DNA from: Acidobacteriota bacterium
Lineage (GTDB): Bacteria; Acidobacteriota; UBA6911; RPQK01; JAJDTT01
DNA: 64,000 nt
Reading direction: 5' to 3'
Assembly (NCBI GenBank): GCA_963668095.1
Contig: OY764083.1
Coordinates: 1,521,085-1,585,084 of the forward strand
Position numbers and translations under genes: made by a program
Notes under the pieces: model-generated
What the model saw: the letters and a program-made list of their open reading frames with translations, nothing else
The model's database searches: none
Told to the model about the DNA's origin: nothing
In this document: in pieces, positions 31,322-63,082 of the stretch
How positions within the stretch are numbered: position 1 is the first letter of the stretch
Layout: each line of letters starts with the position of its first letter

Positions 31322-31469
31322 CTACAGGTGGTCCCAATCGTCTCCGAAACACTGGAGAAGTTGACTGCCCCTCTCTCGTTCCCACCGAAGTTGTCGATTG
31401 CCGCCTTTGCGGAGTCGTCTGGCTTGAGGGTGTGTTTCCTAAATGCACACATTGTGTAATTACTGGATC

Positions 31470-31757
31470 ATGAGGGCCAGTTTCGACTGGAGCACGGAGA
31501 AGAATCAAAGACTCATCGAGCAGCGAGGAATCTCATTCGAGAGTGGCGTCTCCGCCATAGAGCAAGGCGGCTTGTTGGATGTACTGGAACACCCGATCCA
31601 GGATCGCTACCCGGGACATTTGATCTACGTCGTGGAATCCGACGAGTACATTTTTCTTGTACCTGTTGTGACGCAGGCCGACGGCACTCGTTTTCTGAAG
31701 ACGATTATTCCCAGCCGAAAGGCGACGAAGACTTACCGGAGGAGGCAGCCATCGTGA
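31470..31757 (+). CDS. brnT: BrnT-family ribonuclease toxin (DUF497)
   Basis: FDWSTEKNQRLIEQRGISFES...IYVVESDEYIFLVPV matches BrnT. Confidence 0.65.
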   Translation: MRASFDWSTEKNQRLIEQRGISFESGVSAIEQGGLLDVLEHPIQDRYPGHLIYVVESDEYIFLVPVVTQADGTRFLKTIIPSRKATKTYRRRQPS

Positions 31758-37051: not shown

Positions 37052-37397
37052 GATCCGTCCCTATGATGGGTCCAGTTAAAGTCGAAGAGACATACATGGC
37101 CGGAAAAACGCCGAACATGCACAAGGCTCAAGAAGACAAGATCATCGGAATCCGCCGCCAGGACTGCCGACAGAGGACGACTTGGCCGAGCCGGTGTTCT
37201 CGCCGAGGAGATCATCAACAGCCTAGAATCTGGCATGAATAGTTTCCGTGATATCCCTACTGGTTTGCGTCAGGCAGGTAGTTGATGGGCCGCTGATTCA
37301 TGCACCATGGCCGTCTTTTGGAACACGATCCTCTTCTAAAGCTTATTTCCGGCGAACTCCGCATGGAGAACGCCAACACACTTTTGGAGGCCACCCT

Positions 37398-42900: not shown

Positions 42901-42973
42901 CGCAGGGATCGCCGGTCAGGGCCTTGCAGATAAGACTTTCAAGGCCGCGTTCGGTCGTGTCGGTGGTCGCCAT
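39944..42973 (-). pseudogene. hsdR: type I restriction enzyme R subunit (HsdR) interrupted by one in-frame TAG
   Basis: N-terminal nuclease and helicase motifs (HSAGSGKS, IIDEAHSSQ) sit in 41105-42973. The C-terminal HsdR domain sits in 39944-41098, in the same frame. A single amber codon at 41105-41107 (...KSRY*AIVAFSGK...) separates the two halves. Confidence 0.85.
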
Positions 42974-43306: not shown

Positions 43307-43527
43307 GGCAGCGAGTCCTTCAAGTCCCAGGTCTCGTGGTCGAGAACACTTTCGACCTGCCAGCGTCCAACGCCTGGGAACCACTCCAGAAACTGTTCAA
43401 TCGTGGCGCCATCTCTGAGGTTTTCGAACAGCGCCGCAACGGATACTCGCGTGTCGCAAAATACCCAGGCTCCGCTGACCTTTTCCGGGTCGCGCTCGAC
43501 GGCAGAACACGTCTTCCATCTGGTCAT
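43303..43527 (-). CDS. DUF433-family protein (putative antitoxin partner)
   Basis: VFCDTRVSVAALFENLRDGATIEQFLEWFPGV matches DUF433. It is embedded between hsdS and hsdR. Confidence 0.55.
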   Translation of the reverse strand: MTRWKTCSAVERDPEKVSGAWVFCDTRVSVAALFENLRDGATIEQFLEWFPGVGRWQVESVLDHETWDLKDSLP

Positions 43528-46894: not shown

Positions 46895-47220
46895 TGGATA
46901 CTCAGGATATCTCAAACTGTCCAGAATCCCAGGATACCGGGAGTATTCCGGCGGGATGAAACTTGGTCCTGGCATTGCGACACCGATTTGGTAGTGGACT
47001 CTCCCGTTCTCTCAGTGGAGCATCGGTTCTTCGTCCCGTGCGGGCGATCCGGCTCTTTTGCGGCCCCTGGAAAACGCGGAGACTTCTCGTATGCTCCCCC
47101 ACCGGTCGCGGGCCGGCGGAATCCAGACAGAAAAAGAATGGTCTGGGAGCGTCGGCTCTCCGCCGTCAGACTCCGATGGAGCCAGAGGAAGAGGAGCAAT
47201 GGGGGGACAAGAAAAAGCGT

Positions 47221-47243: not shown

Positions 47244-47550
47244 TCTCACCCGTAGGACCTGCTCGCCGGAGAGACAGGTAGCCCCCTGAGGTGAGCTACC
47301 TGTGTCAGACAGATCGTGTAGAACCGGATTCACAATCCAGGAGTTGTCGTCCAAGACCTTGGGAGCGGAATCTGATTTTCCTGTTTTCGACACATGTTTC
47401 AAGCCCTCGTTTTTGTGTAAGTCGTTTTTTCTCTGTGATTTGTCACCCATAGCATAACAACTGACCATGAAAACACCGGAGCTTGAAAATACCTCCTACT
47501 CCTTATTTCTCAGTAACTTACGAAATTCCGAGTGAGAACTGGACACCTAG

Positions 47551-49320
47551 GAGGCTGTCCGACAACTCGGCATTGAGCGAGTTCCGTCCGTAAAAACGCT
47601 CATGGGCGATGGCCCGTGGCTCCGAATCCCGTTGAATCTCGGGCTCCGAAGCCGAGGGAATCGATTTATTGCTCTAATTTCGGCTCGGAAAGGGCATTCA
47701 GAGGCCGGGTTTTGCCTTTAAATGGCCTGATCCGCCCTTTTTTACGCGAAAGCCGCTCGTTTCCCGAATTCCGGACACACCTCTCCCTGCACCGCCGCAA
47801 GAATGATCTTCTTGAGGTTGTGCGCCGCACAGACGAGTGAGAATTCCCCGGCCACTTTCGCCTTGCCCCGCAACCCGAAACCTCGGAATCCCGAGTTCTT
47901 GATTTGCCCGAACACCGGCTCCACGATGGTCTTGCGACGCGCGTAGATCGCTCGCCCCTCCGGTTTCGACATCCGCTCGTTCATGGCCCGTCGCAACGGC
48001 TCCTGCCCGTCGCTCGTGATCGTGCGGGCCGCTCCTGACTTCGAACGGCAACAGCGACGGTAGTATCGGCAGCCCGCGCACACTTGACGATCGCCCTGAT
48101 ACACTCGCCGTCCCTGGCCATTGCTGCTCTTCAATGTCAGCAACTGCCCGCCGGGACATTCATAGGCGTCCTGCTGCGCGTCGTATCGAAAGTCCGCCTT
48201 CACCAGCCGGCGGTCACTCTCGTCCAGTTCCGTCTTCGCCTTCTTCTCTCCCCGGTCCGTCGCCACGTAGGCTTCCACCTTGCGGTCCGACAGTGCCTGC
48301 AGGTTCGTCCCCGAGTAGTAGCCGTTGTCCAGACTCATCGTCTCCGGCAGATCCCCGGTCGACTCCTGCACCTCATCCAGCGCCGGTTTCACCTCCCGCA
48401 CGCCCGTTGCCTGCTGACTCACGTGCTGTCCCACGATCACCTGAGCCTCGTCGTCCACGCTGATCTGCGGGTTGTAAGCGTACTCGAACGCGCCGTTTTT
48501 CTTCATGATCCGCGCGTCGTGATCCGCGAAGCTGATCTGTTTCTTGTCCTCGATCTCCTGCCCCGGGTGCAACTCCGCCTCCCGCTCTTCCAGCGCCTGC
48601 TTCGCCGCCCGGACCTTCTCCAACCGCTTCTTCTTGTCCTGCAGCTCCTCGGGCAACTCGTAGCCCGTCTCCTCCTGATAGGCTTGATCCTCTTCCTCGT
48701 CGCAACGATCCGCCTGTCGCGTCAGGGCTTCAATCTCCTCGCACAACTCCTGCTCCCGTTGCTTGAGCCGCCCGTAGCTCATCGCCTTGTGCTTCGAGCT
48801 GTTGGCCTTGAACTTCGAGCCGTCCAGGCTCACATGGCCCAGACTCACCAGTCCCATCTCCATTGCCAGCCGCACCGTCTGCTTGAAGCAGGACCGGAAG
48901 AACTCCCCATGGTCCTTGCGGAAATCGCTCAACACCCGGAAGTTCGGGCAGTTCCTCCCGGCGATGTACAGGAACGCCAGATCCTGCCGGCAGCGCTGCT
49001 CGATCTGGCGTGAACTGAACACCCCGTGGCTGTAGGCGTAGATCAGGATCGAGACGAGCTGACGCGCCGCGTAGGCCCGTTGCCCCTGGGGGCTGTACTG
49101 GGCCTCCACCTCCATCGTGTCCAACTGCCGGAACAGATCCCGGTAGAGGAAACAGTCGTGATCCTTCGCCAGCAGGTCAAACACGCTGGCGGGAAACAGT
49201 TGGCTCTGGTAGTGACCATTCGCGTAAGGCTTGAAGCGGGGTAGCATCCGAGACTCTCCTGACGATCCGATGCCCTGATTTTAGGCAGCGTCGGTGACAG
49301 TTCTGTTCTCGGACAGCCTC
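47551..49320 (-). mobile_element. IS1182-family insertion sequence
   Basis: The terminal inverted repeats are GAGGCTGTCCGA at 47551-47562 and its reverse complement at 49309-49320. A single 501-aa transposase lies at 47742-49247 (minus strand). Confidence 0.75.
47742..49247 (-). CDS. IS1182-family DDE transposase
   Basis: LDGSKFKANSSKHKAMSYGRL with a C-terminal Cys cluster and the ...VEPVFGQIKN motif. Confidence 0.8.
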   Translation of the reverse strand: MLPRFKPYANGHYQSQLFPASVFDLLAKDHDCFLYRDLFRQLDTMEVEAQYSPQGQRAYAARQLVSILIYAYSHGVFSSRQIEQRCRQDLAFLYIAGRNCPNFRVLSDFRKDHGEFFRSCFKQTVRLAMEMGLVSLGHVSLDGSKFKANSSKHKAMSYGRLKQREQELCEEIEALTRQADRCDEEEDQAYQEETGYELPEELQDKKKRLEKVRAAKQALEEREAELHPGQEIEDKKQISFADHDARIMKKNGAFEYAYNPQISVDDEAQVIVGQHVSQQATGVREVKPALDEVQESTGDLPETMSLDNGYYSGTNLQALSDRKVEAYVATDRGEKKAKTELDESDRRLVKADFRYDAQQDAYECPGGQLLTLKSSNGQGRRVYQGDRQVCAGCRYYRRCCRSKSGAARTITSDGQEPLRRAMNERMSKPEGRAIYARRKTIVEPVFGQIKNSGFRGFGLRGKAKVAGEFSLVCAAHNLKKIILAAVQGEVCPEFGKRAAFA

Positions 49321-49321
49321 C

Positions 49322-51405
49322 TAGCCCGAGTTTACCACGTTGAACCACAGAATACAGATAAGTTCTTTTGTTTCATAGACATAGAGAAGACAGTCCGTAT
49401 GACCTAACGAGGCTGCGGCAGGGGTTGGATCGCGTGGCTGTCGAGGCCCAGGATTTCGTACATCCGCCGCTGTTCGGCCCCCATCTGCGAGAGCGTCGTC
49501 CTGAGTTCGGGCTCGCTGCCTTCCTCCCGAGCGGGATAGAGCACGTCGACCTCGCGGATTCCGCGGAGCGCGTCCAGCAGTGCGGGAATTGAGTCCTTCA
49601 CGCCGTGGCGGCTCAGTTCCCGCTGCAGCAGCCCGCACAGCATCAGCGCCAGCACGCAGCAGAACACATGCACGGCGATCTTCTGGTCCGTCCAGTGGTA
49701 TTGCGGCCGGATCGCGATACAGTCGCTGTCCTTCAGCTGCCGGAAGGCGCTCTCGACATGATGTTGGGCCCGGTAGCCCCGCACTAACTCGGCGTCGCTC
49801 CAGTCTGCCTGGTCGGTGAACAGCAAGGTCTTGCCCAGCAGCGTGCGCTGCAGATGCTCCCAGGCGCCCCTCTGGAACCGGTAATTCACCTTGGGCAGGC
49901 CGTCCTCCTCACGCACCTGGACGTTGAACAGGTCCCGCATGTGCCGGGCCCGCAGCCAGCCGTCGACCTTCTTGCGCGTGGTGGCGACGCCCGGCTTGCG
50001 CCCCCCGCGGATCTTGCCGTCGCGCCAGCGGCGCAACCGTTGCTGCAGCGCCCGCAGGTGCTGGCGCCGCTTCGCGATCTCGCGCAGCAGCGTCCGGCAC
50101 TGGGCGTCGAACAGCGCCTGGTTCCAGATCACCAGCACCGTGCGCTCGACGCCGAACACCTCGTACTCGGTGCGGTAGACGCGCACGCCGGTCAACCCGT
50201 CGGCCTCCAGCGAGCGCATCTCGTCGGCCGCCACGGCCAGCAGGTTCGGGTGCTGGGTCGGCACCAGCGAGCCGATGAAGTGGAAGGGGCCGCGCTCGAC
50301 CCAGTCCAGGTTCTCGCGCGAGTTGTTGCCCTTGTCGAAGACCAAGGTGACCGTCTCGGCGCCGACGGCGATCTCCTGGTAGCGCCGCGCCAAGTCGGCG
50401 GCGAGGCTCTGGAACAGCGGCGCATCGGGCCGGTTGCCGGGATAGGTGCGATGCAGCAGGGGCAGGCGGAAGTCGGCCGTGACCAGCAGCGCCACGCCGA
50501 TGATGCGCAACGACCTGCGGCCCTCCTTGCTGTGGCCTCGCTGGGCCAGTTGGGAGCGCTCGTTGAAGGAATCGATGTAGGTGAAGAAGTTGGTGGCGTC
50601 AAACAGCACCTGGCGCAGATCGAGGTCGAACTCGCGGGTCATGGCGGTCACGATGTCGCGTTCGATGGCCGGGATCGCAGAGACGGGGATGCGGTGCATG
50701 TGGTCCCAGAAGCGCTGGCTGGTGAGCTGGCGGGAGCGCAGGGGGAGCAGGCGGGTGAGGGCGGTGGAATCGAACCAGCGGGCGAGGCTGGCCTTGGAGC
50801 CGGGGGCGAGGCAGCGGTTGAGGACGGCGGCGAGCAGGTAGTGGCCGACGGAGGGGCCGGAGCCGCGCTTGGGGACATGGCGGTCGATGTGCTCGACGAG
50901 CCGCAGGCGGCGGGCGAGGGTGAGCAGGGCGGCGGAGGCGCCGAACTCGCGCACGACGGCCTCCCGAGGCTGGGCGGGGACGGGTCCGGCCCGGAGTTTC
51001 TCGAGGATCTTGTCGGCGCGGCCGAGATAGGTCTGGGAGACGATCTTGGGCTTGCCGTCGACGCGCTTGCAGACCCGGGCGTAGTAGTAGGGGTGGCCCC
51101 GGATGATCTTCTTGACGAGGCTGGCCATATAGTTAGGTCATACATTAGCGAAGAGAGAGGCGCGAGTCAAGGTCCATCGTCTGAAATAAAAAGATTTTCC
51201 CCTTGGATCAGATAGATACTTCCACACCATACTTGTCCAAGACCAATATGTGTTAGGTCATACACACGCGGAATTCAGTCATCCGGAAGGATCAATCGGA
51301 CAGGGTGGATAAACTCTTTCCTATCAGTAACTTGAAGATGAGAAATCGGTCAGCCCATGCACTGGGGCAGTGCTATGCTGACGCGAACACGGTAAACTCG
51401 GGCTA
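49322..51405 (-). mobile_element. IS1634-family insertion sequence, copy 1 (2084 bp)
   Basis: The terminal inverted repeats are TAGCCCGAGTTTACC(A/G)(C/T)GTT. It is identical to the copy at 58267-60350 (inverted) except for one base in the terminal inverted repeat. Confidence 0.8.
49404..51128 (-). CDS. IS1634-family transposase
   Basis: 574 aa starting ...KIIRGHPYYYARVCKRVDGKPKIV, with a DDE domain. Confidence 0.8.
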   Translation of the reverse strand: MASLVKKIIRGHPYYYARVCKRVDGKPKIVSQTYLGRADKILEKLRAGPVPAQPREAVVREFGASAALLTLARRLRLVEHIDRHVPKRGSGPSVGHYLLAAVLNRCLAPGSKASLARWFDSTALTRLLPLRSRQLTSQRFWDHMHRIPVSAIPAIERDIVTAMTREFDLDLRQVLFDATNFFTYIDSFNERSQLAQRGHSKEGRRSLRIIGVALLVTADFRLPLLHRTYPGNRPDAPLFQSLAADLARRYQEIAVGAETVTLVFDKGNNSRENLDWVERGPFHFIGSLVPTQHPNLLAVAADEMRSLEADGLTGVRVYRTEYEVFGVERTVLVIWNQALFDAQCRTLLREIAKRRQHLRALQQRLRRWRDGKIRGGRKPGVATTRKKVDGWLRARHMRDLFNVQVREEDGLPKVNYRFQRGAWEHLQRTLLGKTLLFTDQADWSDAELVRGYRAQHHVESAFRQLKDSDCIAIRPQYHWTDQKIAVHVFCCVLALMLCGLLQRELSRHGVKDSIPALLDALRGIREVDVLYPAREEGSEPELRTTLSQMGAEQRRMYEILGLDSHAIQPLPQPR

Positions 51406-51477
51406 AAGCTTCTACGGGTTTATTGGAAATGCCCAGATCTGCAACTGTATGCCACAAGGGGCCAGGTTCAGCACGGA

Positions 51478-53496
51478 GTGGATATCGTTGACCTAAGTGG
51501 CCAAGAGCCCCTGCGTGCTGCTCAGTGTAAGCTGCACGAAGAAGGGAAAGTGACGAAACGATCAGAGGTTAAGAAAGAGATCGAGAAGGCACTGGGATTC
51601 CATCCTGCCATTGGCCGATACGTAATCATGACCACCGGAAAGGTCCGGAGAGAAGTACATGACTTACAGTTGGAGATCAATCGAAAACACAGGGAAAAGA
51701 ACCTTTTCATCGTAGAAGTGTTGGATTGGTGTTCCATTGAGGAACTTCTCAATGAATACACGAGCGTTCGCGATTGGTACGAGGGTGACCCATCAGTCGC
51801 GGCCGCCAAAAGGGTCGAGTCGAAGATAGATGATCTGCGTGAGTTGCTTGAGATGAGTTCCGGTCCAGGTCGCGGCGACGACAACCAGGACAGATTTCAC
51901 GCTATGATTGATGAAGCACGAAGTTACCTCGATAAACACGACTACCAGATAGCGAAGCTTCTGCTGAAGCGAATCAAAGTTCAATGTTGGGACAAGCTTA
52001 ACGCACGGCATAAGTTTAGAGTGTTAACCAACCTTGCGGTTGTTGAGTTGTCAGCTGATAACCCCAAGGGAGCGGCTGAGTTGTTTCTCAATGCAAAAAA
52101 ATACCAGCCTGCTGACAAAACAGCTCGGACCAACGAAGCACGGAGCTGTCTGATATTGGGGCAACGTGAGCGAGCCTTTGAGCTTGCCGACAAGCTAAAA
52201 GACGAATTCCCTCGCTCCAAGCAGATATTGGGAATCTTTATTCAAAGTGCACCTGATTCAATGCCACTGGAATCGTTCGAAGAATCGGTGCCTCAAGACT
52301 TGCTTGGTGAGGAAGAAGTGGCCGTCGCCTTAACGTACCGGGCACTCGATTCCAACGAGTTGGCAAAAGCTGAGACTTTTATCAGATCTGCGACAGGTGG
52401 TAATAGTCACACGTCGATGACGTGGCTATTGCTCGGTCGGATTATCCTTCAGTCGGAAATATCACAGAACTATCAGAGGCATGGAACGGGAGCCCTAGTT
52501 TGTGACCAAGATAGGCTTCATGAAGCTGAAGATGCCCTTGGACAAGCTCTCATGTGGGCCGGGAAAGAGCGGTCCACTTCCGCGACGGTAGAAGCGTTAC
52601 TTAACAGAAGTCGGACTAGATTCTTGTTGGACAAGAATGCAGAAGCCCGTAAGGACTTAGTGGAGGCTCGAAGGATCGCTCCAGAAAATTCACTCGTCAT
52701 CGAAACCTATGGCGAATCGCTTAGGTTTGAGGGAAAAACTGATGACGCGATCGAGTACATGCGTCGCTTAGGGCAAGAGAAATTGTCCGATCATGGTCGA
52801 CTAATGCTGGGGATGCTTCTTATTGAGCGTGGACGTTCCGGTGATCACCGAAGTGCTGCAGACTTGTTTAGTCGAGTGGCGAAAAGTGAGGCCAAGCTGC
52901 CAGAGGATTTCCGCGAGAACGCCATTGAGGTTGGACTTCAGGCTTTCGCGAGCCAGAGGAAATTCGACGCAGGCCAAAAGCTGTTGGAAAAAGTTCCTGA
53001 GGGGACTATTTCTGATGTCTGCTTGAAGACTCTGGTAGCAAGGCTCTATTTGTTGGAAGGTCGGCAAGAAGATGCTTCACAGTTTGCGGACCAAGCTCTT
53101 GACATAATAAGCGATGTAACGTCGATATTTGACGTTCGTCGGATTGCCCGATTGTTGTCTGACTTAGGACGCTTCAACGACGCACTTCCTCTTTGGCAGC
53201 GAACTTCTGTCCCAAGTGTACTAAGCGAGGATACGATGCGCCTGTTGGAATGCGCCAGTCGCCTCAACAGGCATGAAGTCATGCTCGATACGTTCGAAAA
53301 ACTGCGTGATGGGAGAGCAATTGACCGAACGCTACTCGACACCGAGCTTTCTCTGCTCGAAAGATATGATACCGAAGCTGCGATAAAGATTCTTGAGAAA
53401 GAAATTAACCAGCGACCGGACGATACAGAGCTCAAATTAAGGGGATTATATACCAAACTAGCCAAAAACTGTCATAGGTTTCTGGTACAATCCTAG
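51478..53496 (+). CDS. TPR-repeat protein with N-terminal PD-(D/E)xK-like remnant, probably N-terminally truncated by IS1634
   Basis: The reading frame stays open upstream into the IS right end, with no ATG, so the only start is a GTG at 51478. The N-terminus has VDLSG...AAQCK and the rest is TPR-like helical repeats. Local GC is about 50%. Confidence 0.45.
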   Translation: MDIVDLSGQEPLRAAQCKLHEEGKVTKRSEVKKEIEKALGFHPAIGRYVIMTTGKVRREVHDLQLEINRKHREKNLFIVEVLDWCSIEELLNEYTSVRDWYEGDPSVAAAKRVESKIDDLRELLEMSSGPGRGDDNQDRFHAMIDEARSYLDKHDYQIAKLLLKRIKVQCWDKLNARHKFRVLTNLAVVELSADNPKGAAELFLNAKKYQPADKTARTNEARSCLILGQRERAFELADKLKDEFPRSKQILGIFIQSAPDSMPLESFEESVPQDLLGEEEVAVALTYRALDSNELAKAETFIRSATGGNSHTSMTWLLLGRIILQSEISQNYQRHGTGALVCDQDRLHEAEDALGQALMWAGKERSTSATVEALLNRSRTRFLLDKNAEARKDLVEARRIAPENSLVIETYGESLRFEGKTDDAIEYMRRLGQEKLSDHGRLMLGMLLIERGRSGDHRSAADLFSRVAKSEAKLPEDFRENAIEVGLQAFASQRKFDAGQKLLEKVPEGTISDVCLKTLVARLYLLEGRQEDASQFADQALDIISDVTSIFDVRRIARLLSDLGRFNDALPLWQRTSVPSVLSEDTMRLLECASRLNRHEVMLDTFEKLRDGRAIDRTLLDTELSLLERYDTEAAIKILEKEINQRPDDTELKLRGLYTKLAKNCHRFLVQS

Positions 53497-53498
53497 CC

Positions 53499-54485
53499 AT
53501 GATGAGAGAACGCAAGAGCAAGAAAGCACCGGGAAAGCATCACAGGGAAGGGCTGACCATCATCCAATTGCTCAAGCTGTTCCCCGACGATTCCACGGCT
53601 GAGAGGTGGTTCGAGAAACAGCGGTGGCCGGAAGAGCGGTGCTGCCCGGACTGCGGCTCAGTCAACACGATGGCAACCAAGAACCGGAAGCCGATGCCCT
53701 ACCGCTGCCGGGACTGCCGACGCCATTTCAGCGTCCGCAAGGGCATGGTGATGCAGTCCTCCAAGATCGGCTACCAGAAGTGGGCCATCGCCATCTACAT
53801 GATGACCACGGGGCTCAAGGGAGTTTCTTCTATGAAGCTCTACCGCGAGTTGGGCATCACGCAAAAGACCGCCTGGTATCTCATGCAGCGAATCCGTGAG
53901 GGGTTCTTCGGGAACGCTGGCAACTTCACCGGCCCAGTCGAGGTTGACGAGACTTATATGGGCGGCAAGCGTCGCAACATGAGCAACGCCAAGCGCAAGG
54001 CGTTGGCTGGAACTGGGCGCGGCTCCGTTGGCAAGACGACTGTCGTGGGAGCCAAGGACCGATCCACCAAGCGGGTTGCGGCGAAGGTTGTCCCTGACAC
54101 CAAGGCCAAGACTCTCCAGGGTTTCGTCCACGATCACACCCGGCCGGGAGCGAAGGTCTACACGGATGATTCCTCGTCCTACGTCTCGCTGAGCAACCAC
54201 GAAAGCGTGAAGCACACCGTCCAGGAGTTCGTCCGGGGCGATGTCCACACCAACGGCGTGGAAAGCCTCTGGTCCATGCTCAAGCGCGGCTACGTCGGGA
54301 CCTACCACAAGATGAGCCCCAAGCACCTGGACCGCTACGTCCGGGAGTTCGCCGGCCGTCAGAACATCCGAGAGTTCGACACCCTGACCCAAATGGCGAT
54401 CATCGCCAAGGGTCTGGATCACACCATCCTCCACTACCGGGACCTAATCGCCGATAACGGCCTTTCGTCCGGTGCCAGAGAGTAG
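53499..54485 (+). CDS. IS1595-family (ISXO2-like) transposase
   Basis: An N-terminal zinc ribbon (CPDCGS...CRDCRRHF) and DDE_Tnp_IS1595 motifs (VEVDETYMGG). Confidence 0.8.
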   Translation: MMRERKSKKAPGKHHREGLTIIQLLKLFPDDSTAERWFEKQRWPEERCCPDCGSVNTMATKNRKPMPYRCRDCRRHFSVRKGMVMQSSKIGYQKWAIAIYMMTTGLKGVSSMKLYRELGITQKTAWYLMQRIREGFFGNAGNFTGPVEVDETYMGGKRRNMSNAKRKALAGTGRGSVGKTTVVGAKDRSTKRVAAKVVPDTKAKTLQGFVHDHTRPGAKVYTDDSSSYVSLSNHESVKHTVQEFVRGDVHTNGVESLWSMLKRGYVGTYHKMSPKHLDRYVREFAGRQNIREFDTLTQMAIIAKGLDHTILHYRDLIADNGLSSGARE

Positions 54486-54565
54486 CAGAGGAAAAGCTGT
54501 GGAGAATCCTTTGGGAATCCTGTTAAGTTCTTGTTTCTCAACTGTTTACGGGGGTTTTTGTTGCA

Positions 54566-55219
54566 ATGCCGAGTCTAGCAGCCTACTCTGACGCCGTGTC
54601 ACCGGCTGATGACCTATCCAGCTATCTGCACGGACGTAGGTTCGGGACCATTTTGGCCGATCCGCCGTGGAGGTTCATGAATCGGACGGGCAAGGTAGCC
54701 CCGGAGCACCGACGCCTGTCTCGCTACCAAACGCTCTCGTTTGAAGAAATCGAGGGTCTTCCGGTTCAGAACCACTTGGCGGACGTCGCTCACTGCTATC
54801 TGTGGGTTCCAAACGCGCTTCTCCCTCACGGCCTCCAGACTCTCCGCGCTTGGGGTTTCCAGTACAAGACGAATCTGATCTGGTTCAAAATTCGCAAGGA
54901 TGGCGGACCCGATGGGCGTGGCGTTGGTTTCTACTTCCGCAACGTGACGGAAGTGATCCTGTTCGGGGTCCGGGGAAAACACGCCCGAACTCTGGCCCCA
55001 GGCCGCCGTCAGGTCAATCTCATTGCATCCCGGAAGCGGGAGCATTCTCGGAAGCCTGATGAGCAGTATGACGTCATTGAAAGTTGCAGCAGGGGTCCGT
55101 ATCTGGAGTTGTTTGGCCGGGGAATCAGGGATAATTGGACGGTCTGGGGGAATCAGGCCAAAGACGATTATTCTCCCGCTTGGCCGACCTATGCCCACAA
55201 CTCCACCAATGCTGTCTGA
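54566..55219 (+). CDS. MT-A70-family DNA N6-adenine methyltransferase
   Basis: The DPPW motif (ILADPPWRF) and an MT-A70 fold over 217 aa. Confidence 0.8.
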   Translation: MPSLAAYSDAVSPADDLSSYLHGRRFGTILADPPWRFMNRTGKVAPEHRRLSRYQTLSFEEIEGLPVQNHLADVAHCYLWVPNALLPHGLQTLRAWGFQYKTNLIWFKIRKDGGPDGRGVGFYFRNVTEVILFGVRGKHARTLAPGRRQVNLIASRKREHSRKPDEQYDVIESCSRGPYLELFGRGIRDNWTVWGNQAKDDYSPAWPTYAHNSTNAV

Positions 55220-55934
55220 CTTGAGGAGTGTCGGTTTTGATGTCCAGACAGAGAACCACGCTACAGCTATCCTCACTCGGGACTTCCCGATTCCGTTTCG
55301 GGAAATCTGCGAGGTTCTGTTGGAATTCAGGATTGCGGACGTGGAATTGATCCGTGGGGGTGGGGGAGAATCCGCTCCGACTCAACGACTGAGGCGAGCG
55401 CTCACAATCCGGGGATGGACCAAGCGAAACATCGTTATCCGCAAGACCGTAGACGGCGAAGAGCGGTCTTCCATGACGCATGAAATAGACCACGTTCGAC
55501 AGACTCCTAACGGCTCTGTGGCCTTGGAAATCGAATGGAATAACAAGGATCCGTTCTTTGATCGAGATCTAGAGAATTTCCATCGCTTGCATAGTGAGGG
55601 GGCAATTAGCGTTGGTGTGATTGTGACGCGGGGGCGGTCGCTTCAGGACGATCTGGAAAGGATTGTCCTCCGGTGCGCGCAGAATCATCAAGTGCAAGAC
55701 TTCGATGATTTGTCATCGCTTTTTGGATTGAATCCGACCATACGGCAGAGACGTAGCGTCCGGTCTGTTGGGGATGATTTCTCCCGTGAATGGGCGCGGA
55801 TGTTCGTCCGGGATAAATTCGGTTCCTCCACAACCCATTGGGTGAAACTCCAGGATCGGATAGATCGGGGTGTTGGGAGTCCCTGCCCATTGGTCCTAAT
55901 CGGAATTCCCGACAAAGCTGTCCATGAGGAGTGA
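55209..55934 (+). CDS. putative type II restriction endonuclease (PD-(D/E)xK-like), partner of the MT-A70 MTase
   Basis: An 11-nt overlap with the methyltransferase gene. A candidate active site THEIDH...ALEIEWNNK gives a D...ExE/K layout. No family is recognised with confidence. Confidence 0.35.
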   Translation: MLSDLRSVGFDVQTENHATAILTRDFPIPFREICEVLLEFRIADVELIRGGGGESAPTQRLRRALTIRGWTKRNIVIRKTVDGEERSSMTHEIDHVRQTPNGSVALEIEWNNKDPFFDRDLENFHRLHSEGAISVGVIVTRGRSLQDDLERIVLRCAQNHQVQDFDDLSSLFGLNPTIRQRRSVRSVGDDFSREWARMFVRDKFGSSTTHWVKLQDRIDRGVGSPCPLVLIGIPDKAVHEE

Positions 55935-56084
55935 ATGAAGGATAAGAAACGGACGAAAAAGCCGGGAAGACCCAAGACCCGGATCATCAAGTTGGACGCG
56001 ACGCCGGAGGAAGTGGCCAAGCGGATGTTCGCCAACTCGAAGCCGCCAGACCCGTCTATCCGCGTCAGGAACCGGCCCGACTAA
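55935..56084 (+). CDS. small basic ORF (49 aa), hypothetical
   Basis: Its ATG overlaps the upstream stop (TGAATG). The sequence is lysine/arginine-rich (MKDKKRTKKPGRPKTR...). It is not in the ORF track because it is under 60 aa. Confidence 0.25.
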   Translation: MKDKKRTKKPGRPKTRIIKLDATPEEVAKRMFANSKPPDPSIRVRNRPD

Positions 56085-56133
56085 CAGGGGCTTTGGCTAG
56101 TTTGGTATATAATCCCCCAAATTAAGGCGTTCA

Positions 56134-57885
56134 ATGCTAGGATTGGCTCTTGATCGGCCTGAGTTAGTAGATCAGGATCCATCGAGCGTTCCAACAGCTG
56201 ACGATGTGGCCATAAGTAAGGCCCCTGATGCTGTGCATGTCCTACGCGCAATCGGGCAGGAACAATATGCTGTGCAGTACGCCTATGAAGTGATTCGCCA
56301 TAATTTTCAGAATCCGGATGCGCACAAGGCATTCATTCTAGCTTTATCTCCGTTCCCGAACGAGCCAGAGCTGGAAGAGCCAGTACGGGTCGGAACGGGG
56401 GTCGCAGTATGTTATGTGGAGCAGGGAGACTCTACCCCTCACTGGATTATCGTCGAAGACTCGCCAGAACCTGCATCGCAGTTCGCAGAACCCGAACTGT
56501 CACCCGATCACGGAATCTGTAAGGGCATGATCGGCAAGAAAGTAGGAGACACTTTTGTCCTCGCCAAAGGCATCCAGGATCGCGTCGCCACAATCACGCA
56601 AATCCAGAATAAATATGTCCATCGATTTCAAGACTGCACGGGACAGTGGCAGGTGAGGTTTCCAGAGTTACCGTACCTACAGGCTGTCAGGATTGCGAAA
56701 CAAACTGGCAAGTCGAATGAGGCAGAATCGGACTTTAGCGCAATTCTTAAGTCCCTTGATCAACGTTATGAACATGTAAAACGGATTCAAGGAATTTACA
56801 AAGAGAACCTAACCCCTCTTTATATATTCGGAAAACCTTTTGGCAAGAATGCTTTTGAAGCGATCCGGCATCTTGCGTTGTCATGCGATGTATCGGTCAA
56901 GTGCTGCGTTGGTACAATTGAAGAGCGTGAGGAAGCAGCGAAATCATTCAGGTCTTGCAATACAGTTGTTCTGGACATGAGCGCAATCTCTACGCTTTTC
57001 TTGCTGGATAGGCTCGATATTTTGAAGTCCTTGGTGGTCGATCTTGTAGTTTCCAAGGGCACAATGAGTGTGCTTAGAAACATGATCGCTAATGAGGCAC
57101 GGGGTTACTGCGGAAAATCAGGAGTAATGTTTAAGACGGACACAGGATACTCAATGGTGGAATCGACAGCCGTCCAACACGATAAGTACATCAAGTTACT
57201 GAGGCATCTTGTTGAAGTGTTAGAGAATAACTGCAAAATTAAATCGTGCAAGACGCTAGCTGCAATGAAGCCCGGGAATAGGGAAACGCTAATTGAGGTC
57301 TTTGGCCAATATGGGGCAGAAACAATTTTGCTGTCTGCCGTGCCGGGAGCCGTATTGTGGACTGATGATCAAGTGCAGGCAATGCTGGCCAGAAGCAAGT
57401 ACGGTGTGGCGCGAGTGTGGACGCAGTTTGTTATCGGGGTACGTGCAGAATCTGGCATGGTAAATCCCGAGGTCTATCTTGACGCAAGCGCCAAGCTTCT
57501 CGGATACGGGTATGACTTTTCTGTCGCAGATCCGGCAATTATAAGATGTGCGGGAGCCATTGCAGAGTGGAAGGTAGACGGCTGGCCCCTTTTACAAGCA
57601 CTGTCCACATTTTCTGACGAATCCGTCGATCTAAGGCAGGTGCTTGAGTTGGCAGCGGGATTTCTCAGGTTACTGTATCAAGACTCAATCCTTCCACAAA
57701 CTAAGTCGAATATCACCGTGAAGATTCTCGAAAACGTTGCGAAGAGAATGGGAGGAATTGAGGCAATTCAAAGCCTCCACAGAGCTCTTCCGAGAGTTTT
57801 TGGTGTAAATGTCGTTGGCTGTGCGGACGCGACAAAAACCATCGAAGCCTGGCTCAAGAGCGTTAACAATCGTCTGTTCATGTAG
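56134..57885 (+). CDS. hypothetical protein with GreA/GreB-C-like segment and C-terminal PIN-like domain
   Basis: Residues about 130-165 (GICKGMIGKKVGDTFVL...ATITQIQ) resemble the FKBP-like C-domain of GreA/B. VVLDMSAIS...LWTDDQ suggests a PIN-like fold. GC is about 48%. Confidence 0.4.
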   Translation: MLGLALDRPELVDQDPSSVPTADDVAISKAPDAVHVLRAIGQEQYAVQYAYEVIRHNFQNPDAHKAFILALSPFPNEPELEEPVRVGTGVAVCYVEQGDSTPHWIIVEDSPEPASQFAEPELSPDHGICKGMIGKKVGDTFVLAKGIQDRVATITQIQNKYVHRFQDCTGQWQVRFPELPYLQAVRIAKQTGKSNEAESDFSAILKSLDQRYEHVKRIQGIYKENLTPLYIFGKPFGKNAFEAIRHLALSCDVSVKCCVGTIEEREEAAKSFRSCNTVVLDMSAISTLFLLDRLDILKSLVVDLVVSKGTMSVLRNMIANEARGYCGKSGVMFKTDTGYSMVESTAVQHDKYIKLLRHLVEVLENNCKIKSCKTLAAMKPGNRETLIEVFGQYGAETILLSAVPGAVLWTDDQVQAMLARSKYGVARVWTQFVIGVRAESGMVNPEVYLDASAKLLGYGYDFSVADPAIIRCAGAIAEWKVDGWPLLQALSTFSDESVDLRQVLELAAGFLRLLYQDSILPQTKSNITVKILENVAKRMGGIEAIQSLHRALPRVFGVNVVGCADATKTIEAWLKSVNNRLFM

Positions 57886-57954
57886 AGAGTTCTCACCCGG
57901 CAAGTCCGATTTTCAAAGATTGGATCGGCTGGGGCAAGGGGCAGAAGCTACAAT

Positions 57955-58019
57955 AAAGCGGTGCCGGCTGGGGCCGCCAGCAGGATTTTCGACTTCTCTG
58001 AGGACCGGCACCGGTTTTT
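57955..58019 (+). terminator. structured Rho-independent terminator
   Basis: cggtgccgg ... ccggcaccgg with a nested gctgg/ccagc hairpin, followed by TTTTTT. Confidence 0.55.
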
Positions 58020-58074
58020 TAGACACACGGGTCCCTGAAAGCCGCCGTCTGACAATGGATGTCAAGGCTGCGCT

Positions 58075-58266
58075 CAGAGCAGCGGGAGGACCAGAACCAG
58101 CAATTTGAAGGTGGTGATCGAGAGGGCCACGTACTGTTGAAAATGGGGCCAGCCTTTCCAGGTGCAGCGTCGGAGACCGAAGACGCGCTTGAGCATCGAG
58201 ATGCAACCTTCGATGCCGGCGCGAAAGCGTCGCAGTTGCCGGTGGACTCAACCCAAGCGCACTATC
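58075..58266 (-). pseudogene. IS5-family transposase C-terminal fragment, truncated by IS1634 copy 2
   Basis: The translation ...IEGCISMLKRVFGLRRCTWKGWPHFQQYVALSITTFKLL* is the characteristic IS5/IS4 transposase C-terminus. The coding sequence stops abruptly at the IS1634 end. Confidence 0.6.
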
Positions 58267-60350
58267 TAGCCCGAGTTTACCGTGTTCGCGTCAGCATAGC
58301 ACTGCCCCAGTGCATGGGCTGACCGATTTCTCATCTTCAAGTTACTGATAGGAAAGAGTTTATCCACCCTGTCCGATTGATCCTTCCGGATGACTGAATT
58401 CCGCGTGTGTATGACCTAACACATATTGGTCTTGGACAAGTATGGTGTGGAAGTATCTATCTGATCCAAGGGGAAAATCTTTTTATTTCAGACGATGGAC
58501 CTTGACTCGCGCCTCTCTCTTCGCTAATGTATGACCTAACTATATGGCCAGCCTCGTCAAGAAGATCATCCGGGGCCACCCCTACTACTACGCCCGGGTC
58601 TGCAAGCGCGTCGACGGCAAGCCCAAGATCGTCTCCCAGACCTATCTCGGCCGCGCCGACAAGATCCTCGAGAAACTCCGGGCCGGACCCGTCCCCGCCC
58701 AGCCTCGGGAGGCCGTCGTGCGCGAGTTCGGCGCCTCCGCCGCCCTGCTCACCCTCGCCCGCCGCCTGCGGCTCGTCGAGCACATCGACCGCCATGTCCC
58801 CAAGCGCGGCTCCGGCCCCTCCGTCGGCCACTACCTGCTCGCCGCCGTCCTCAACCGCTGCCTCGCCCCCGGCTCCAAGGCCAGCCTCGCCCGCTGGTTC
58901 GATTCCACCGCCCTCACCCGCCTGCTCCCCCTGCGCTCCCGCCAGCTCACCAGCCAGCGCTTCTGGGACCACATGCACCGCATCCCCGTCTCTGCGATCC
59001 CGGCCATCGAACGCGACATCGTGACCGCCATGACCCGCGAGTTCGACCTCGATCTGCGCCAGGTGCTGTTTGACGCCACCAACTTCTTCACCTACATCGA
59101 TTCCTTCAACGAGCGCTCCCAACTGGCCCAGCGAGGCCACAGCAAGGAGGGCCGCAGGTCGTTGCGCATCATCGGCGTGGCGCTGCTGGTCACGGCCGAC
59201 TTCCGCCTGCCCCTGCTGCATCGCACCTATCCCGGCAACCGGCCCGATGCGCCGCTGTTCCAGAGCCTCGCCGCCGACTTGGCGCGGCGCTACCAGGAGA
59301 TCGCCGTCGGCGCCGAGACGGTCACCTTGGTCTTCGACAAGGGCAACAACTCGCGCGAGAACCTGGACTGGGTCGAGCGCGGCCCCTTCCACTTCATCGG
59401 CTCGCTGGTGCCGACCCAGCACCCGAACCTGCTGGCCGTGGCGGCCGACGAGATGCGCTCGCTGGAGGCCGACGGGTTGACCGGCGTGCGCGTCTACCGC
59501 ACCGAGTACGAGGTGTTCGGCGTCGAGCGCACGGTGCTGGTGATCTGGAACCAGGCGCTGTTCGACGCCCAGTGCCGGACGCTGCTGCGCGAGATCGCGA
59601 AGCGGCGCCAGCACCTGCGGGCGCTGCAGCAACGGTTGCGCCGCTGGCGCGACGGCAAGATCCGCGGGGGGCGCAAGCCGGGCGTCGCCACCACGCGCAA
59701 GAAGGTCGACGGCTGGCTGCGGGCCCGGCACATGCGGGACCTGTTCAACGTCCAGGTGCGTGAGGAGGACGGCCTGCCCAAGGTGAATTACCGGTTCCAG
59801 AGGGGCGCCTGGGAGCATCTGCAGCGCACGCTGCTGGGCAAGACCTTGCTGTTCACCGACCAGGCAGACTGGAGCGACGCCGAGTTAGTGCGGGGCTACC
59901 GGGCCCAACATCATGTCGAGAGCGCCTTCCGGCAGCTGAAGGACAGCGACTGTATCGCGATCCGGCCGCAATACCACTGGACGGACCAGAAGATCGCCGT
60001 GCATGTGTTCTGCTGCGTGCTGGCGCTGATGCTGTGCGGGCTGCTGCAGCGGGAACTGAGCCGCCACGGCGTGAAGGACTCAATTCCCGCACTGCTGGAC
60101 GCGCTCCGCGGAATCCGCGAGGTCGACGTGCTCTATCCCGCTCGGGAGGAAGGCAGCGAGCCCGAACTCAGGACGACGCTCTCGCAGATGGGGGCCGAAC
60201 AGCGGCGGATGTACGAAATCCTGGGCCTCGACAGCCACGCGATCCAACCCCTGCCGCAGCCTCGTTAGGTCATACGGACTGTCTTCTCTATGTCTATGAA
60301 ACAAAAGAACTTATCTGTATTCTGTGGTTCAACGTGGTAAACTCGGGTTA
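58267..60350 (+). mobile_element. IS1634-family insertion sequence, copy 2 (inverted relative to copy 1)
   Basis: 2084 bp carrying an identical 574-aa transposase at 58544-60268. Confidence 0.8.
58544..60268 (+). CDS. IS1634-family transposase (identical to 49404-51128)
   Basis: Identical translation. Confidence 0.8.
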   Translation: MASLVKKIIRGHPYYYARVCKRVDGKPKIVSQTYLGRADKILEKLRAGPVPAQPREAVVREFGASAALLTLARRLRLVEHIDRHVPKRGSGPSVGHYLLAAVLNRCLAPGSKASLARWFDSTALTRLLPLRSRQLTSQRFWDHMHRIPVSAIPAIERDIVTAMTREFDLDLRQVLFDATNFFTYIDSFNERSQLAQRGHSKEGRRSLRIIGVALLVTADFRLPLLHRTYPGNRPDAPLFQSLAADLARRYQEIAVGAETVTLVFDKGNNSRENLDWVERGPFHFIGSLVPTQHPNLLAVAADEMRSLEADGLTGVRVYRTEYEVFGVERTVLVIWNQALFDAQCRTLLREIAKRRQHLRALQQRLRRWRDGKIRGGRKPGVATTRKKVDGWLRARHMRDLFNVQVREEDGLPKVNYRFQRGAWEHLQRTLLGKTLLFTDQADWSDAELVRGYRAQHHVESAFRQLKDSDCIAIRPQYHWTDQKIAVHVFCCVLALMLCGLLQRELSRHGVKDSIPALLDALRGIREVDVLYPAREEGSEPELRTTLSQMGAEQRRMYEILGLDSHAIQPLPQPR

Positions 60351-60658
60351 GGCAAAGTAATTCAAAATCCCGTTCGTTCCGTGGTCTGTTGTGACTTTTG
60401 CGCATAAGCCTACCCACAATACTAATTGGAAAGAGATATAAGATAGCCAGAAAAAGGGGAACAGTTACCTCTCTCTAGCCGGGGGATCTCAACAGATACA
60501 AAGGTAATGGTCGTTTTCTGTGGCATAAGTGTTTTGACAACGACCATTTACAATACCACAGGAGCACGACATTATGGTCACACAGTGTACCAGAACAGAG
60601 GTCAGGGAGAAGCAGGCTGTCCCTTTCTCGCGCCCCATGTAGGACACGAGGTCGCAGA

Positions 60659-62491
60659 TCACGACACGGCCTCTTTTTCAAGACGATCCGGGTTCCATAT
60701 TCGTTCGGCCAGACAGCGATAGAGTTGCTGGCGTTCGTCCAGATCTTCCCTTCGGAAGTTTGTGTGCGACCTGAACTCTAACCCGCTCCTCTGGACGAAT
60801 CGTACGAATCCCGGGTCGCGATCGTACGCGTCGTCGTGGAGGCTCTGAGCAAGGAGGTTGTGTTTCAGATAGTGTGCACGCTTATCGGTGTAAGGGAGGT
60901 CGCCGTAGCTGGCGTTAAATGGCTTCGGAAGGAGCAGAAGCCCACCAATCCGATTGCGATACTCGGCGAAATCCGATGGGTGAGTAAAGTCATCGGTGTG
61001 GCGCTCGGGATGATCAGCCCATATATGCTCAATCTCATACCCCTTCTTTCCCCAGCGTCTAATGTACTCATGATAGCGAGAAGGTCGCCCGGAACTGGTC
61101 TCTACATAGTCCGTCATCCGAGCCAGGAGCCTATGGATCTGCGGACCATTTGTGCCATGGAGACGAAACCGATCATTGCTGGAAAAGATTTCCCTTTCGG
61201 CCGATAGCCGATTCCCGAGCAGGTCAATCAGCCTACCCACGTCCTTCCGCCGGATTTCGCGCATGACGAGGAACATGGCGTACTGCATTGTCGAGTAGTC
61301 GATCGCCCGCCAATTCCAGATTCGCCGCGTAATCAGAATGTCGAGATAGGCAGACACAACCCGCAGTTTGCGTAGGTTTTCCGACTCGCTGTCTCCCGAA
61401 TTCAAGGATGCGAGGAGAACTGGGTACTGAAGTGTAAAGTTGTTCTGCGCACAGAAATGGATGGCCTCCAGTCCATCAGTGAGCGTATCGGCAGCTCGAC
61501 GAAGTCGTTTATACCACCGGCCATAGAACGCGAAATCTTCCTCGATGAAGCGTGCAAACTCGCGACTTGACGCCAAGCCAAGTTCTTTCTCGTGCTCGCG
61601 TACCCAGCGATGAAACTCCGTACCGATACGATCGAAGTCCCGCGCGGTAGCACCTTTCTTCCTTTCACGAATGGTCTGGGCGTATTGGCTTCGGAGCCAT
61701 GCCTTGATTGCATCGGCGTCCTCGTCCTTTCCGACGTCTCGCAGCCTTGTCACTTCGTTCTGCCAGTGGCGGCTGGCGGCATTGCGCCTGTTGGGCTCGG
61801 TAATGTTTGCGAGAAGATAACCCTTCAGCATCTCGGTTGGCGTAAGAGAGAGTCCCCGGTCGTTCATGGTCTCGAAGATCGTGTAGGCATCCGCATCCGT
61901 GTATGCGGTGATCTCTACAAGATACACGTTCTCGATCAGCCAATCCGCGAAATGTGGAAGCGCTTTGGCAGCGATATCGCCGGGAAAGAGCTCTTCCACA
62001 TCCTGGTACCGGTGAACGATGTTGGCAACGGACTCCGGTTGGTCGGTCTCGTCGAACGGCGAGTCGTTGAAAAGTGCTCGCATACAAGCAGCACGTTCCG
62101 GGACATCAAGATTGAACGAGACCTGCCCGAATCTCTTGGAGAATATCAAGCCAGCAAGTTGAACTTTCTGATCGGCGTCAACCAGCGTTCGATAAATGTG
62201 TATTAGGATGAGGGTTAACGTTGTGAGTCGCTGCTGCCCGTCGATGACAAATTTGCGGCTGTCCTTGGCACTCACGATTATGGATCCGAGGAAGTAATGG
62301 CCATAGTTCTCGACATCGCTTTGGTCGTGGCCCTCGTCGTAGCTATCCTTGAACTTCTCGGTTAGATCCTCAAGAAGCTCTCTCACTTGTTTTCTTTGCC
62401 AACGATATTCTCGCTGGTAGTAGTCGATTGCGAACTTGGCATGGCCGAGTAAGGAGCGCAAGTTCTTGGCGTCGCCATGAATCTTCTTCAT
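60659..62491 (-). CDS. GmrSD-family type IV restriction-like protein (DUF262 + DUF1524)
   Basis: The N-terminus has DGQQRLTTLTLIL (DUF262) and the C-terminus has YEIEHIWADH (DUF1524). It has no AlbA_2 domain and GC is about 50%. Confidence 0.75.
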   Translation of the reverse strand: MKKIHGDAKNLRSLLGHAKFAIDYYQREYRWQRKQVRELLEDLTEKFKDSYDEGHDQSDVENYGHYFLGSIIVSAKDSRKFVIDGQQRLTTLTLILIHIYRTLVDADQKVQLAGLIFSKRFGQVSFNLDVPERAACMRALFNDSPFDETDQPESVANIVHRYQDVEELFPGDIAAKALPHFADWLIENVYLVEITAYTDADAYTIFETMNDRGLSLTPTEMLKGYLLANITEPNRRNAASRHWQNEVTRLRDVGKDEDADAIKAWLRSQYAQTIRERKKGATARDFDRIGTEFHRWVREHEKELGLASSREFARFIEEDFAFYGRWYKRLRRAADTLTDGLEAIHFCAQNNFTLQYPVLLASLNSGDSESENLRKLRVVSAYLDILITRRIWNWRAIDYSTMQYAMFLVMREIRRKDVGRLIDLLGNRLSAEREIFSSNDRFRLHGTNGPQIHRLLARMTDYVETSSGRPSRYHEYIRRWGKKGYEIEHIWADHPERHTDDFTHPSDFAEYRNRIGGLLLLPKPFNASYGDLPYTDKRAHYLKHNLLAQSLHDDAYDRDPGFVRFVQRSGLEFRSHTNFRREDLDERQQLYRCLAERIWNPDRLEKEAVS

Positions 62492-62499
62492 GTATTTCC

Positions 62500-62700
62500 T
62501 CCTCCGATGATCTCCGCGAACAGTTCGATTGTATCCGAGTCTGCCGCCAGAATATTGTCCAGGGTCCTAAGACTCACGTTTGTAGATATACCGATTGAAG
62601 CTGATCCCGTACGCGATCTTCACACTCTTGGGAACGTACCAAGTTTCCATTTCATACGGGAATACCTCACGGCGTGGGCACCTCTCAATACTGTATGCCA
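62500..62700 (-). pseudogene. hsdM 3'-terminal remnant
   Basis: About 75% nucleotide identity to the 3' end of hsdM at 44930-45080. The translation ...WYVPKSVKIAYGISFNRYIYK... matches HsdM ...WYPPKKVKIGYEISFNRYFYK.... Confidence 0.6.
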
Positions 62701-62704
62701 TTGG

Positions 62705-62968
62705 CCGGGCCATCGGTGTCTCCCCGAGGGCATCAACGAAATCGTCCTTGGCCGACGGTCGATCACGCCGCCCATGTCGTTTCATTTTAGCGCCTTCTAC
62801 GGTCAGTCGGACAAGCTCTGGCACGGCATCCAAGTCGAGTGCGACTTCCGCAAGCTGGCGGGGGACAGAAACCGACTGATTGCCGACATTAAACCGGCTG
62901 CGACCCTGGCAGCCCGTGGCGAGAGCCGCGACGGCACTCGACCTGCGCTGCATTCAGGTGAACGGTAA
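62705..62968 (+). pseudogene. higA 3' fragment (frameshifted)
   Basis: About 88% identical to 31045-31321, with a 1-nt deletion near the start of the match, so it lacks the HigA N-terminus. Confidence 0.65.
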
Positions 62969-63082
62969 CGACAGGCGGTCACAAGGGTCTCTGGTACAAG
63001 AGTTGCTCGCAATGCAGTGACACTTCGACCAGCAAAATCCCCGCCCGCCGTTCGTGGACGCGGTCACAGATGCCGAGGCATG

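Follow-up and report, generated by a model that had tools for sequence, protein, structure and literature searches.

We analysed a 64,000-nt window of an Acidobacteriota bacterium (contig OY764083.1 of assembly GCA_963668095.1, positions 1,521,085 to 1,585,084) and followed up a pile-up of insertion sequences (IS) between its positions 47,551 and 60,350. The window is this whole 64-kb stretch, and all coordinates are counted from its first letter. Two copies of an IS1634-family element lie here in inverted orientation, separated by 6867 bp, and pieces of one broken gene lie between and outside them. Very probably, an IS1634-bounded inversion of 6.9 kb of resident chromosome split this gene, a defence-type gene of 1283 residues. 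We read the region as part of a defence island in decay and not as an imported composite transposon, and the mobile-element behaviour it records is of known kinds. The features on which this reading is built are the following:

49321-49324: CTAG, outer duplication of IS1634 copy 1 (site A), doubling as the right duplication of an IS1182-family element.
49325-51402, minus strand: IS1634 copy 1, 2078 bp, CCCGAG...CTCGGG, with its transposase at 49404-51128.
51403-51406: CTAA, inner copy of the site-B duplication, whose partner TTAG is at 60348-60351 on the opposite strand.
51403-53440, plus strand: middle fragment of the 1283-aa gene, codons 19-697.
56126-57885, plus strand: C-terminal fragment of the gene, codons 698-1283 and stop, with a GreAB-C region and a PIN domain (PF20698).
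58090-58260, minus strand: C-terminal remnant (~57 aa) of a DDE transposase, degenerate and unrelated (DDE_Tnp_1 E = 0.0024; sequence GIEGCISMLKRVFGL...).
58266-58269: CTAG, inner copy of the site-A duplication.
58270-60347, plus strand: IS1634 copy 2, 2078 bp, identical to copy 1, with its transposase at 58544-60268.
60348-60351: TTAG, outer copy of the site-B duplication.
60352-60405, minus strand: codons 1-18 of the gene (MRKSHNRPRNERDFELLC), stranded outside copy 2, with the start codon at 60405-60403.

A repeat search of the window gave inverted arms of 2086 nt at 49320-51405 and 58267-60352, scored as '100%' identical, and a perfect repeat of 2 kb far exceeds chance. An earlier reading of the region, made from the sequence only and without database searches (hereafter the sequence-only reading), had described two inverted IS1634 copies of 2084 bp, identical base for base. 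Both copies are real, and the 574-aa open reading frame (ORF) of each one encodes a transposase of the IS1634 family (NF033559, 290 bits with the cut-off at 100, model positions 2-482/483), for which a Pfam scan gave no match. The identity holds for the element itself, at 49325-51402 and 58270-60347 (2078/2078 positions). Between the 2084-bp copies, the base-by-base comparison found a single mismatch at position 3, where 49324 is G versus the complement of 60348. Comparison with 33 relatives places this base (TAG vs TAA) within a 4-bp target-site duplication, outside the IS proper. The 2078-bp core ends in a perfect 12-bp terminal inverted repeat (IR), CCCGAGTTTACC.

The boundaries of the element were set with its relatives, retrieved by scanning one genome per species (80 loci). 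The nearest ones, with 80-98% protein identity, come from long-read Acidobacteriota and Bryobacterales metagenome-assembled genomes. In 13 full-length close relatives, C always precedes "TAG" and G always follows "CTA". A wider motif search across several phyla found the flanks CTAG/CCCGAG...CTCGGG/CTAG (slashes mark the element ends) in 31 of 33 copies, and one further relative (L047) is flanked by CTAA on both sides. A pairing at another locus (L025) has the unmatched flanks AAAT/CTAG; its right end is common to a canonical CTAG/CTAG pairing of the same locus, and its AAAT side is probably not a real left end. Because of this flank pattern in the 33 relatives, we delimit the element at 2078 bp with a 4-bp duplication. 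The target of this IS1634 subgroup, which is present in several phyla, is the palindrome CTAG and occasionally CTAA.

Each copy also contains the 12-mer GTTAGGTCATAC three times (49397-49408, 51132-51143, and 51252-51263, with mirror positions in copy 2), against 0.1 occurrences expected for the whole window. Its positions and orientation are kept in relatives of other phyla, down to ~57% transposase identity. We predict that these repeats are probably subterminal transposase-binding sites.

The target-site duplications, which the sequence-only reading had proposed to look for, turned out to be exchanged between the copies. Read on the plus strand, the outer and inner flanks are CTAG and CTAA for copy 1, and TTAG and CTAG for copy 2, and neither copy has a matching duplication as assembled. 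When the inner flanks are exchanged in silico, the pairs become CTAG/CTAG and TTAG/TTAG. Swapped flanks of this type are what an inversion between two oppositely oriented IS copies classically leaves behind.

The second line of evidence is the gene itself. We repaired the locus in silico by reversing the 6.9-kb segment and cutting out IS1634 with one copy of the duplication, and by cutting out an IS1595-family element that lies within the segment. Reversal and IS1634 excision opened the frame from the ATG at 60405 (minus strand) straight into the ORF that had been read as an N-truncated TPR/nuclease-like protein. Removal of the IS1595-family element then fused this ORF in frame to the one that had been read as a GreAB-C/PIN-like protein. 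The reverse complement of 60352-60405, joined to 51403-53440 and 56126-57885, is an uninterrupted ORF of 1283 codons. In a database search, at least 76 homologues of 1275-1290 aa covered 99-100% of the restored protein with 46-73% identity. Fifteen homologues are gapless over both junctions, MRKSHNRPRNERDFELLC/LKLLRVYWKC and DDTELKL/RRSMLGLALDR. The domain calls made earlier for the two proteins stand, and the proteins do not: the TPR/nuclease piece, the GreAB-C/PIN piece, and a short unannotated piece are one gene, presumably pseudogenised, and the annotation is to be corrected accordingly.

The restored protein has a PIN domain at residues 979-1116 (PF20698, 1.1e-12, above the cut-off) and TPR matches at residues 229-618. 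At its N-terminus there is a weak Mrr_cat_2-like nuclease match (E = 0.017), with D...QxK legible in the sequence. No Pfam model matched the stretch between TPR and PIN, where a GreA/B C-terminal-like domain is expected; taken alone, the 56134-57885 ORF matches the PIN-TPR-GreABC domain of Pfam. We predict that the ancestral gene was a single-gene conflict system, in which TPR repeats and a GreAB-C region lay between an N-terminal restriction endonuclease (REase)-like domain and the PIN domain. The homologues stand alone as genes, in defence or mobile neighbourhoods. Two intact ones (P0001 and P0004) have other surroundings of this type, show no synteny with the locus in the window, and gave no orthologous empty site. 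PADLOC contains no model of the 1283-aa protein, and a literature search on TPR-GreAB-C-PIN found no paper.

Codons 1-18 face the opposite way from the rest of the gene, and only an inversion of the segment or its mis-orientation by the assembler can give that arrangement. The suspicion of a collapsed repeat, with a single real copy, is excluded, with four IS junctions that differ from one another and all make biological sense; an assembly choice is conceivable only for the orientation of the segment. If the segment were mis-oriented between the identical 2.08-kb inverted repeats, or if one orientation had been chosen from a mixed population, the real gene would be merely interrupted by one IS1634 copy. 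Perfect inverted repeats are a classic source of orientation ambiguity, and mis-orientation gives the exact swapped-flank pattern. Moreover, flip-flop between 2-kb inverted repeats is common, and both orientations may coexist. Even so, we consider an artefact unlikely. Both copies are real, as each of the four junctions is clean and differs from the others. Related genomes are on multi-megabase contigs typical of long-read assemblies, as is a REase identical to one encoded in the window, and reads far longer than 2.08 kb should resolve the orientation trivially. Whatever the orientation, the gene is not an on/off switch, because an IS copy parts codon 18 from codon 19 either way.

Several observations weigh against an inversion of resident DNA. 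The orientation of the 6.9-kb segment is taken from the assembly; in the genome itself this orientation may be fixed, may be present in a fraction of the population, or may come from a choice of the assembler. The empty site A, as reconstructed, had no match in any of the 180 fetched loci. The DDE remnant beside site A (58090-58260), which had been read as a truncated transposase and is indeed a short DDE remnant, is not restored when the inversion is undone: the outer left flank then has stops within six codons and nothing transposase-like upstream. For this reason, the remnant is older than the IS1634 events or owes its truncation to a different event, and the independent proof of the inversion consists of site B and the flank pattern only. 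Finally, a 2-bp TA duplication followed by a terminal point mutation in copy 2 would explain the flanks with no inversion. We rejected this model, as one relative (L047) is flanked by CTAA/CTAA and as it cannot explain why codons 1-18 are on the other strand and beyond copy 2.

The sequence-only reading had also described the locus as composite-transposon-like. In form this is correct, since two IS copies bracket other DNA, and the structure could in principle be mobilised in the future. The enclosed genes are of defence type, bracketed by identical inverted copies, and their G+C content (~0.47-0.55) is low compared with the IS copies (up to 0.71) and also lies below that of parts of the surrounding DNA. 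However, it is highly improbable that the two copies and the 6.9-kb cargo arrived together as a true composite transposon, by means of the outer IS ends. The outer flanks, CTAG (49321-49324) and TTAG (60348-60351), are not a matching 4-bp duplication. Codons 1-18 lie directly outside copy 2, in alignment with the N-termini of the homologues, and this cargo was found beside the IS in 0 of the 80 IS1634-bearing loci. The idea of an imported cargo is not supported.

By contrast, the suggestion that the two copies can invert the DNA between them was right, and relative to the ancestral gene this has already happened, as seen in the swapped flanks and the restored ORF. For the inversion, two routes can be proposed. 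In the first, two independent IS1634 insertions would have been followed by homologous recombination of the RecA type. In the second, a sub-variant of the same reading, one-step intramolecular replicative transposition of a single copy would have produced the second copy and the inversion together. The product expected from the replicative route matches the locus exactly, in the inverted copies, in the inverted segment, and in the pairing of an old with a new flank at each copy, and the route accounts for the 2078/2078 identity without recency or gene conversion. Nevertheless, its end product is the same as that of two-step recombination, and IS4-related DDE elements are generally regarded as cut-and-paste. 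Replicative transposition has been proposed for a Geobacillus element of the IS1634 family, for which donor loss was not seen (PMC8024623). We keep the replicative route as a possible, somewhat doubtful explanation and regard two-step homologous recombination as somewhat more likely.

The IS1595-family element that interrupts the same gene is the most interesting item in the region. Its domain calls in the sequence-only reading (IS1595 transposase, MT-A70 methyltransferase, and putative REase, here of the BglII family) hold, as does the TPR call. What had been missed is that these genes form one mobile unit, a transporter IS (tIS) with its own IRs and 8-bp duplication:

53433-53440: left 8-bp duplication, CAAATTAA.
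53441-56117, plus strand: IS1595-family tIS, 2677 bp, with perfect 26-bp IRs GGGGATTATATACCAAACTAGCCAAA.
53499-54485: IS1595 transposase (PF12762 1.8e-39; zinc ribbon PF12760 4.6e-06; NF033547 189 bits vs a cut-off of 75).
54566-55219: MT-A70 N6-adenine methylase (MT-A70 2.3e-29; DPPW motif; PADLOC MTase_II 6e-89).
55209-55934: BglII/BamHI-like REase (PF09195, Endonuc-BglII, 4e-27; D-X12-E-X-E legible in the sequence).
55935-56084: small basic ORF, conserved in the other full copies examined.
56118-56125: right 8-bp duplication, CAAATTAA.

Excision of this element restores the host ORF in frame, and the separate annotations of transposase, methylase, and nuclease should be replaced by a single transposon. 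The methylase and REase genes overlap by 11 nt, and from their domains we predict a type II restriction-modification (R-M) pair. The solved structures nearest to the methylase are the ciliate MTA1 complex and METTL3. For the REase, the comparison with PDB sequences gave nothing at E <= 0.1, and PADLOC has no model. The small ORF follows the REase in the copies of the unit where this was checked. It encodes 49-55 aa (KKPGRP..TRIIKLDATPE..A.RMFAN.KPPDPS) with no Pfam match, and its identity to the copy in the window is 71% in L091 (5727-5876) and 43% in L093 (5732-5899). This small basic protein could be a regulator or a transposition cofactor.

The unit of transposase, MT-A70 methylase, and BglII-like REase is present in public data as five independent insertions, the window included:

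Window: inside the 1283-aa gene, duplication CAAATTAA.
L091: inside a leucine-rich repeat (LRR) gene, duplication TTTTTTTA.
L093-L098: between recA and alaS, duplication TTTCATTT.
L101: on a JGI metagenome contig, duplication AAAAATTT.
L102: on a JGI metagenome contig, duplication TTAAATTT.

The four sites outside the window belong to other organisms. The unit has IRs there as well, and the 8-bp duplications differ between the sites and are AT-rich. Besides, a decayed copy of the R-M tIS is fixed at another locus (L081-L090). The methylase-REase pair as such is very widely distributed, and more than 7800 homologues of the REase were retrieved. In most of 80 JGI loci the methylase adjoins the REase, with variable gene order, and the IS1595 transposase accompanies only the closest clade of methylase-REase pairs. 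We put forward, tentatively and at somewhat less than even confidence, that this is a self-mobilising R-M tIS whose sole cargo is the methylase, the nuclease, and the small basic protein, that its spread through environmental and host-associated metagenomes is active and crosses the borders of bacterial phyla, and that it knocked out a competing defence gene here. A literature search on the combination of MT-A70, BglII, and transposase gave no paper describing this unit. It bears on the long-standing idea of R-M systems as selfish mobile elements, as the transposase is within the unit and several insertions are independent.

In a further locus (L092, 6022-8124), an MT-A70/BglII-like pair lies next to a GmrSD-Schlafen gene, and a second IS1595 transposase with an N6_N4_Mtase methylase follows downstream. 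From this arrangement, IS1595 elements may have captured methylases more than once.

To the left of IS1634 copy 1, the pile-up continues with the IS1182-family element:

47547-47550: CTAG, left duplication of the IS1182 element.
47551-49320, minus strand: IS1182-family IS, 1770 bp, transposase at 47742-49247, terminal IRs GAGGCTGTCCGA.

The boundaries that the sequence-only reading had given to this element, directly adjoining copy 1, are exact, and CTAG is found on both sides. Its transposase matches NF033551 (414 bits vs a cut-off of 270) and the Pfam families DDE_Tnp_1_6 and DUF772. The IS1182 relatives in two other loci (L008 and L001) are also flanked by CTAG. In the first of them (L008, 7727-11582, OZ253580.1), the IS1182-like element adjoins an IS1634-like element via a common CTAG, which is also the arrangement seen in the window; in the second (L001, CATOST010000018.1), an IS1182-like end adjoins the other end of the IS1634 relative. 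Several more IS1634 copies have ends of different IS (GGAGCCTGCGC...) directly at their CTAG flanks.

CTAG is rare in this DNA. The 64-kb window has 28 sites against 227 expected from base composition, an under-representation of ~8-fold, and the sites are unevenly distributed, with 3 in the first 34 kb versus 25 of the 28 in the defence island at 34-61 kb. This suggests that the island DNA was recently acquired and is a preferred landing ground for CTAG-specific IS. Because each insertion regenerates CTAG on both sides, CTAG-specific elements tend to land side by side and in CTAG-richer acquired DNA. The pile-up needs no special mechanism, since both IS types target the same rare CTAG, which is regenerated on insertion. 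If this is true, a host core that is ~ten-fold depleted in CTAG would steer CTAG-specific IS1634-like and IS1182-like elements towards recently acquired island DNA and towards the flanks of one another. The rarity of the target would then make it predictable that IS pile up and that defence islands decay.

The surroundings are a defence island with further decay:

37248-39530: GmrSD-Schlafen gene.
39944-42973, minus strand: hsdR, type I restriction subunit, with an in-frame TAG at 41105-41107 (...KERKSRY*AIVAFSG...).
43524-46975: hsdS and hsdM, which look intact.
60659-62491: second GmrSD gene, immediately upstream of where the 1283-aa gene ancestrally started.

The hsdR gene is a pseudogene or contains a sequencing error. 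No tRNA was found in the 64-kb window. We considered the 310-bp direct repeats at 31042-31351 and 62690-62998 (31.6 kb apart, 85% nucleotide identity) as island boundaries or att sites and rejected them, as they are paralogous HTH_3/HigA-like antitoxin genes (30977-31321 and ~62646-62998). After the first of these genes there is a BrnT-like toxin ORF at 31443-31757. Two other repeats were seen in the window. A G+C-rich repeat of ~125 nt has two tandem copies at 2262-2503 and an inverted one 12 kb off, at 14627-14754, and resembles miniature inverted-repeat transposable elements (MITE) or repetitive extragenic palindromes (REP). A direct repeat of ~350 bp (27587-27941 and 29291-29644, 94-97% identity, 1.7-kb spacing) suggests that a gene segment was recently duplicated in tandem.

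The element boundaries, the duplications, the swapped flanks, the restored ORF, and its collinearity with homologues are direct observations, and from them we infer a course of events for the locus. The ancestral 1283-aa gene would have been on the minus strand, just downstream of the GmrSD gene. The IS1634 element would have come to sit at site A (CTAG, ~6.9 kb off) and at site B (CTAA, codons 19-20), giving two copies in inverted orientation, and the intervening DNA would have flipped. The inversion would have swapped the inner flanks, leaving each copy with one CTAG and one CTAA/TTAG, and left codons 1-18 with the promoter on the far side of copy 2, pointing away from the remaining codons. 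In an independent event, the 2677-bp IS1595-family tIS with its type II R-M genes would have inserted at codon 697, with an 8-bp duplication. In another one, the CTAG-targeting IS1182 element would have used as its target the CTAG that copy 1 had regenerated on its outer side, creating the pile-up. The locus is a worked example of mobile elements remodelling and eroding a defence island. Three events have left their traces in a single gene (the insertion of an IS, the inversion bounded by IS copies, and the insertion of a transposon), and each can be reversed in silico to base-pair precision.

Compared with known systems, the rearrangement resembles the inversions between inverted copies of IS26, IS1, or IS5, with identical inverted copies, an inverted segment, and one flank per original site. 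It differs in that the element belongs to the IS1634 family, strictly targets CTAG, and duplicates 4 bp, and in that the inversion is independently provable, since it splits a gene with full-length homologues on record. Like the compound transposons Tn10 and Tn5, the locus has two IS copies that bracket non-IS genes and whose outer ends are jointly usable in principle. Unlike them, it has no matching outer duplication, and the enclosed DNA runs on into the outer flank and was not moved as a unit.

Elements of the IS1634 family usually make duplications of 5-6 bp or long, variable ones. For ISGka5, a member of the family, the duplication is 6 bp (PMC8024623). The element described here shares with the family (ISfinder; NF033559) the single long DDE transposase (574 aa), the size of ~2 kb, and short terminal IRs starting with C. 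Its subgroup differs in duplicating 4 bp of the palindromic CTAG (31 of 33 copies) and in having three conserved subterminal GTATGACCTAA(C/T) motifs.

For the interrupted gene, the closest known system is the predicted TPR-GreAB-C-PIN conflict system (PF20698), with which it shares the PIN domain, the TPR array, the weak Mrr_cat_2-like N-terminal match, and the setting in a defence island. Here, in contrast, the gene is in three pieces and presumably inactive.

Finally, the R-M tIS has two relatives in the literature. Known IS1595 tIS such as tISCpe8 and MTnSag1 have a zinc-ribbon IS1595-type transposase, IRs of ~25 bp, an 8-bp duplication, and passengers inside the IRs, as found here (PMC5704250; 10.1101/2021.05.26.445724). 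In those examples the passengers provide lincosamide resistance and mobilisation functions, whereas in the element of the window they are a complete type II R-M pair and a conserved small basic ORF. Furuta, Abe and Kobayashi (2010) described R-M units inside terminal IRs with an 8-bp duplication on insertion, one of which carried a degenerate COG3677 transposase-like gene (PMC2853133). In those units the mobilising enzyme is unknown or degenerate, whereas the unit described here contains an intact IS1595 transposase and is documented in five independent insertions.

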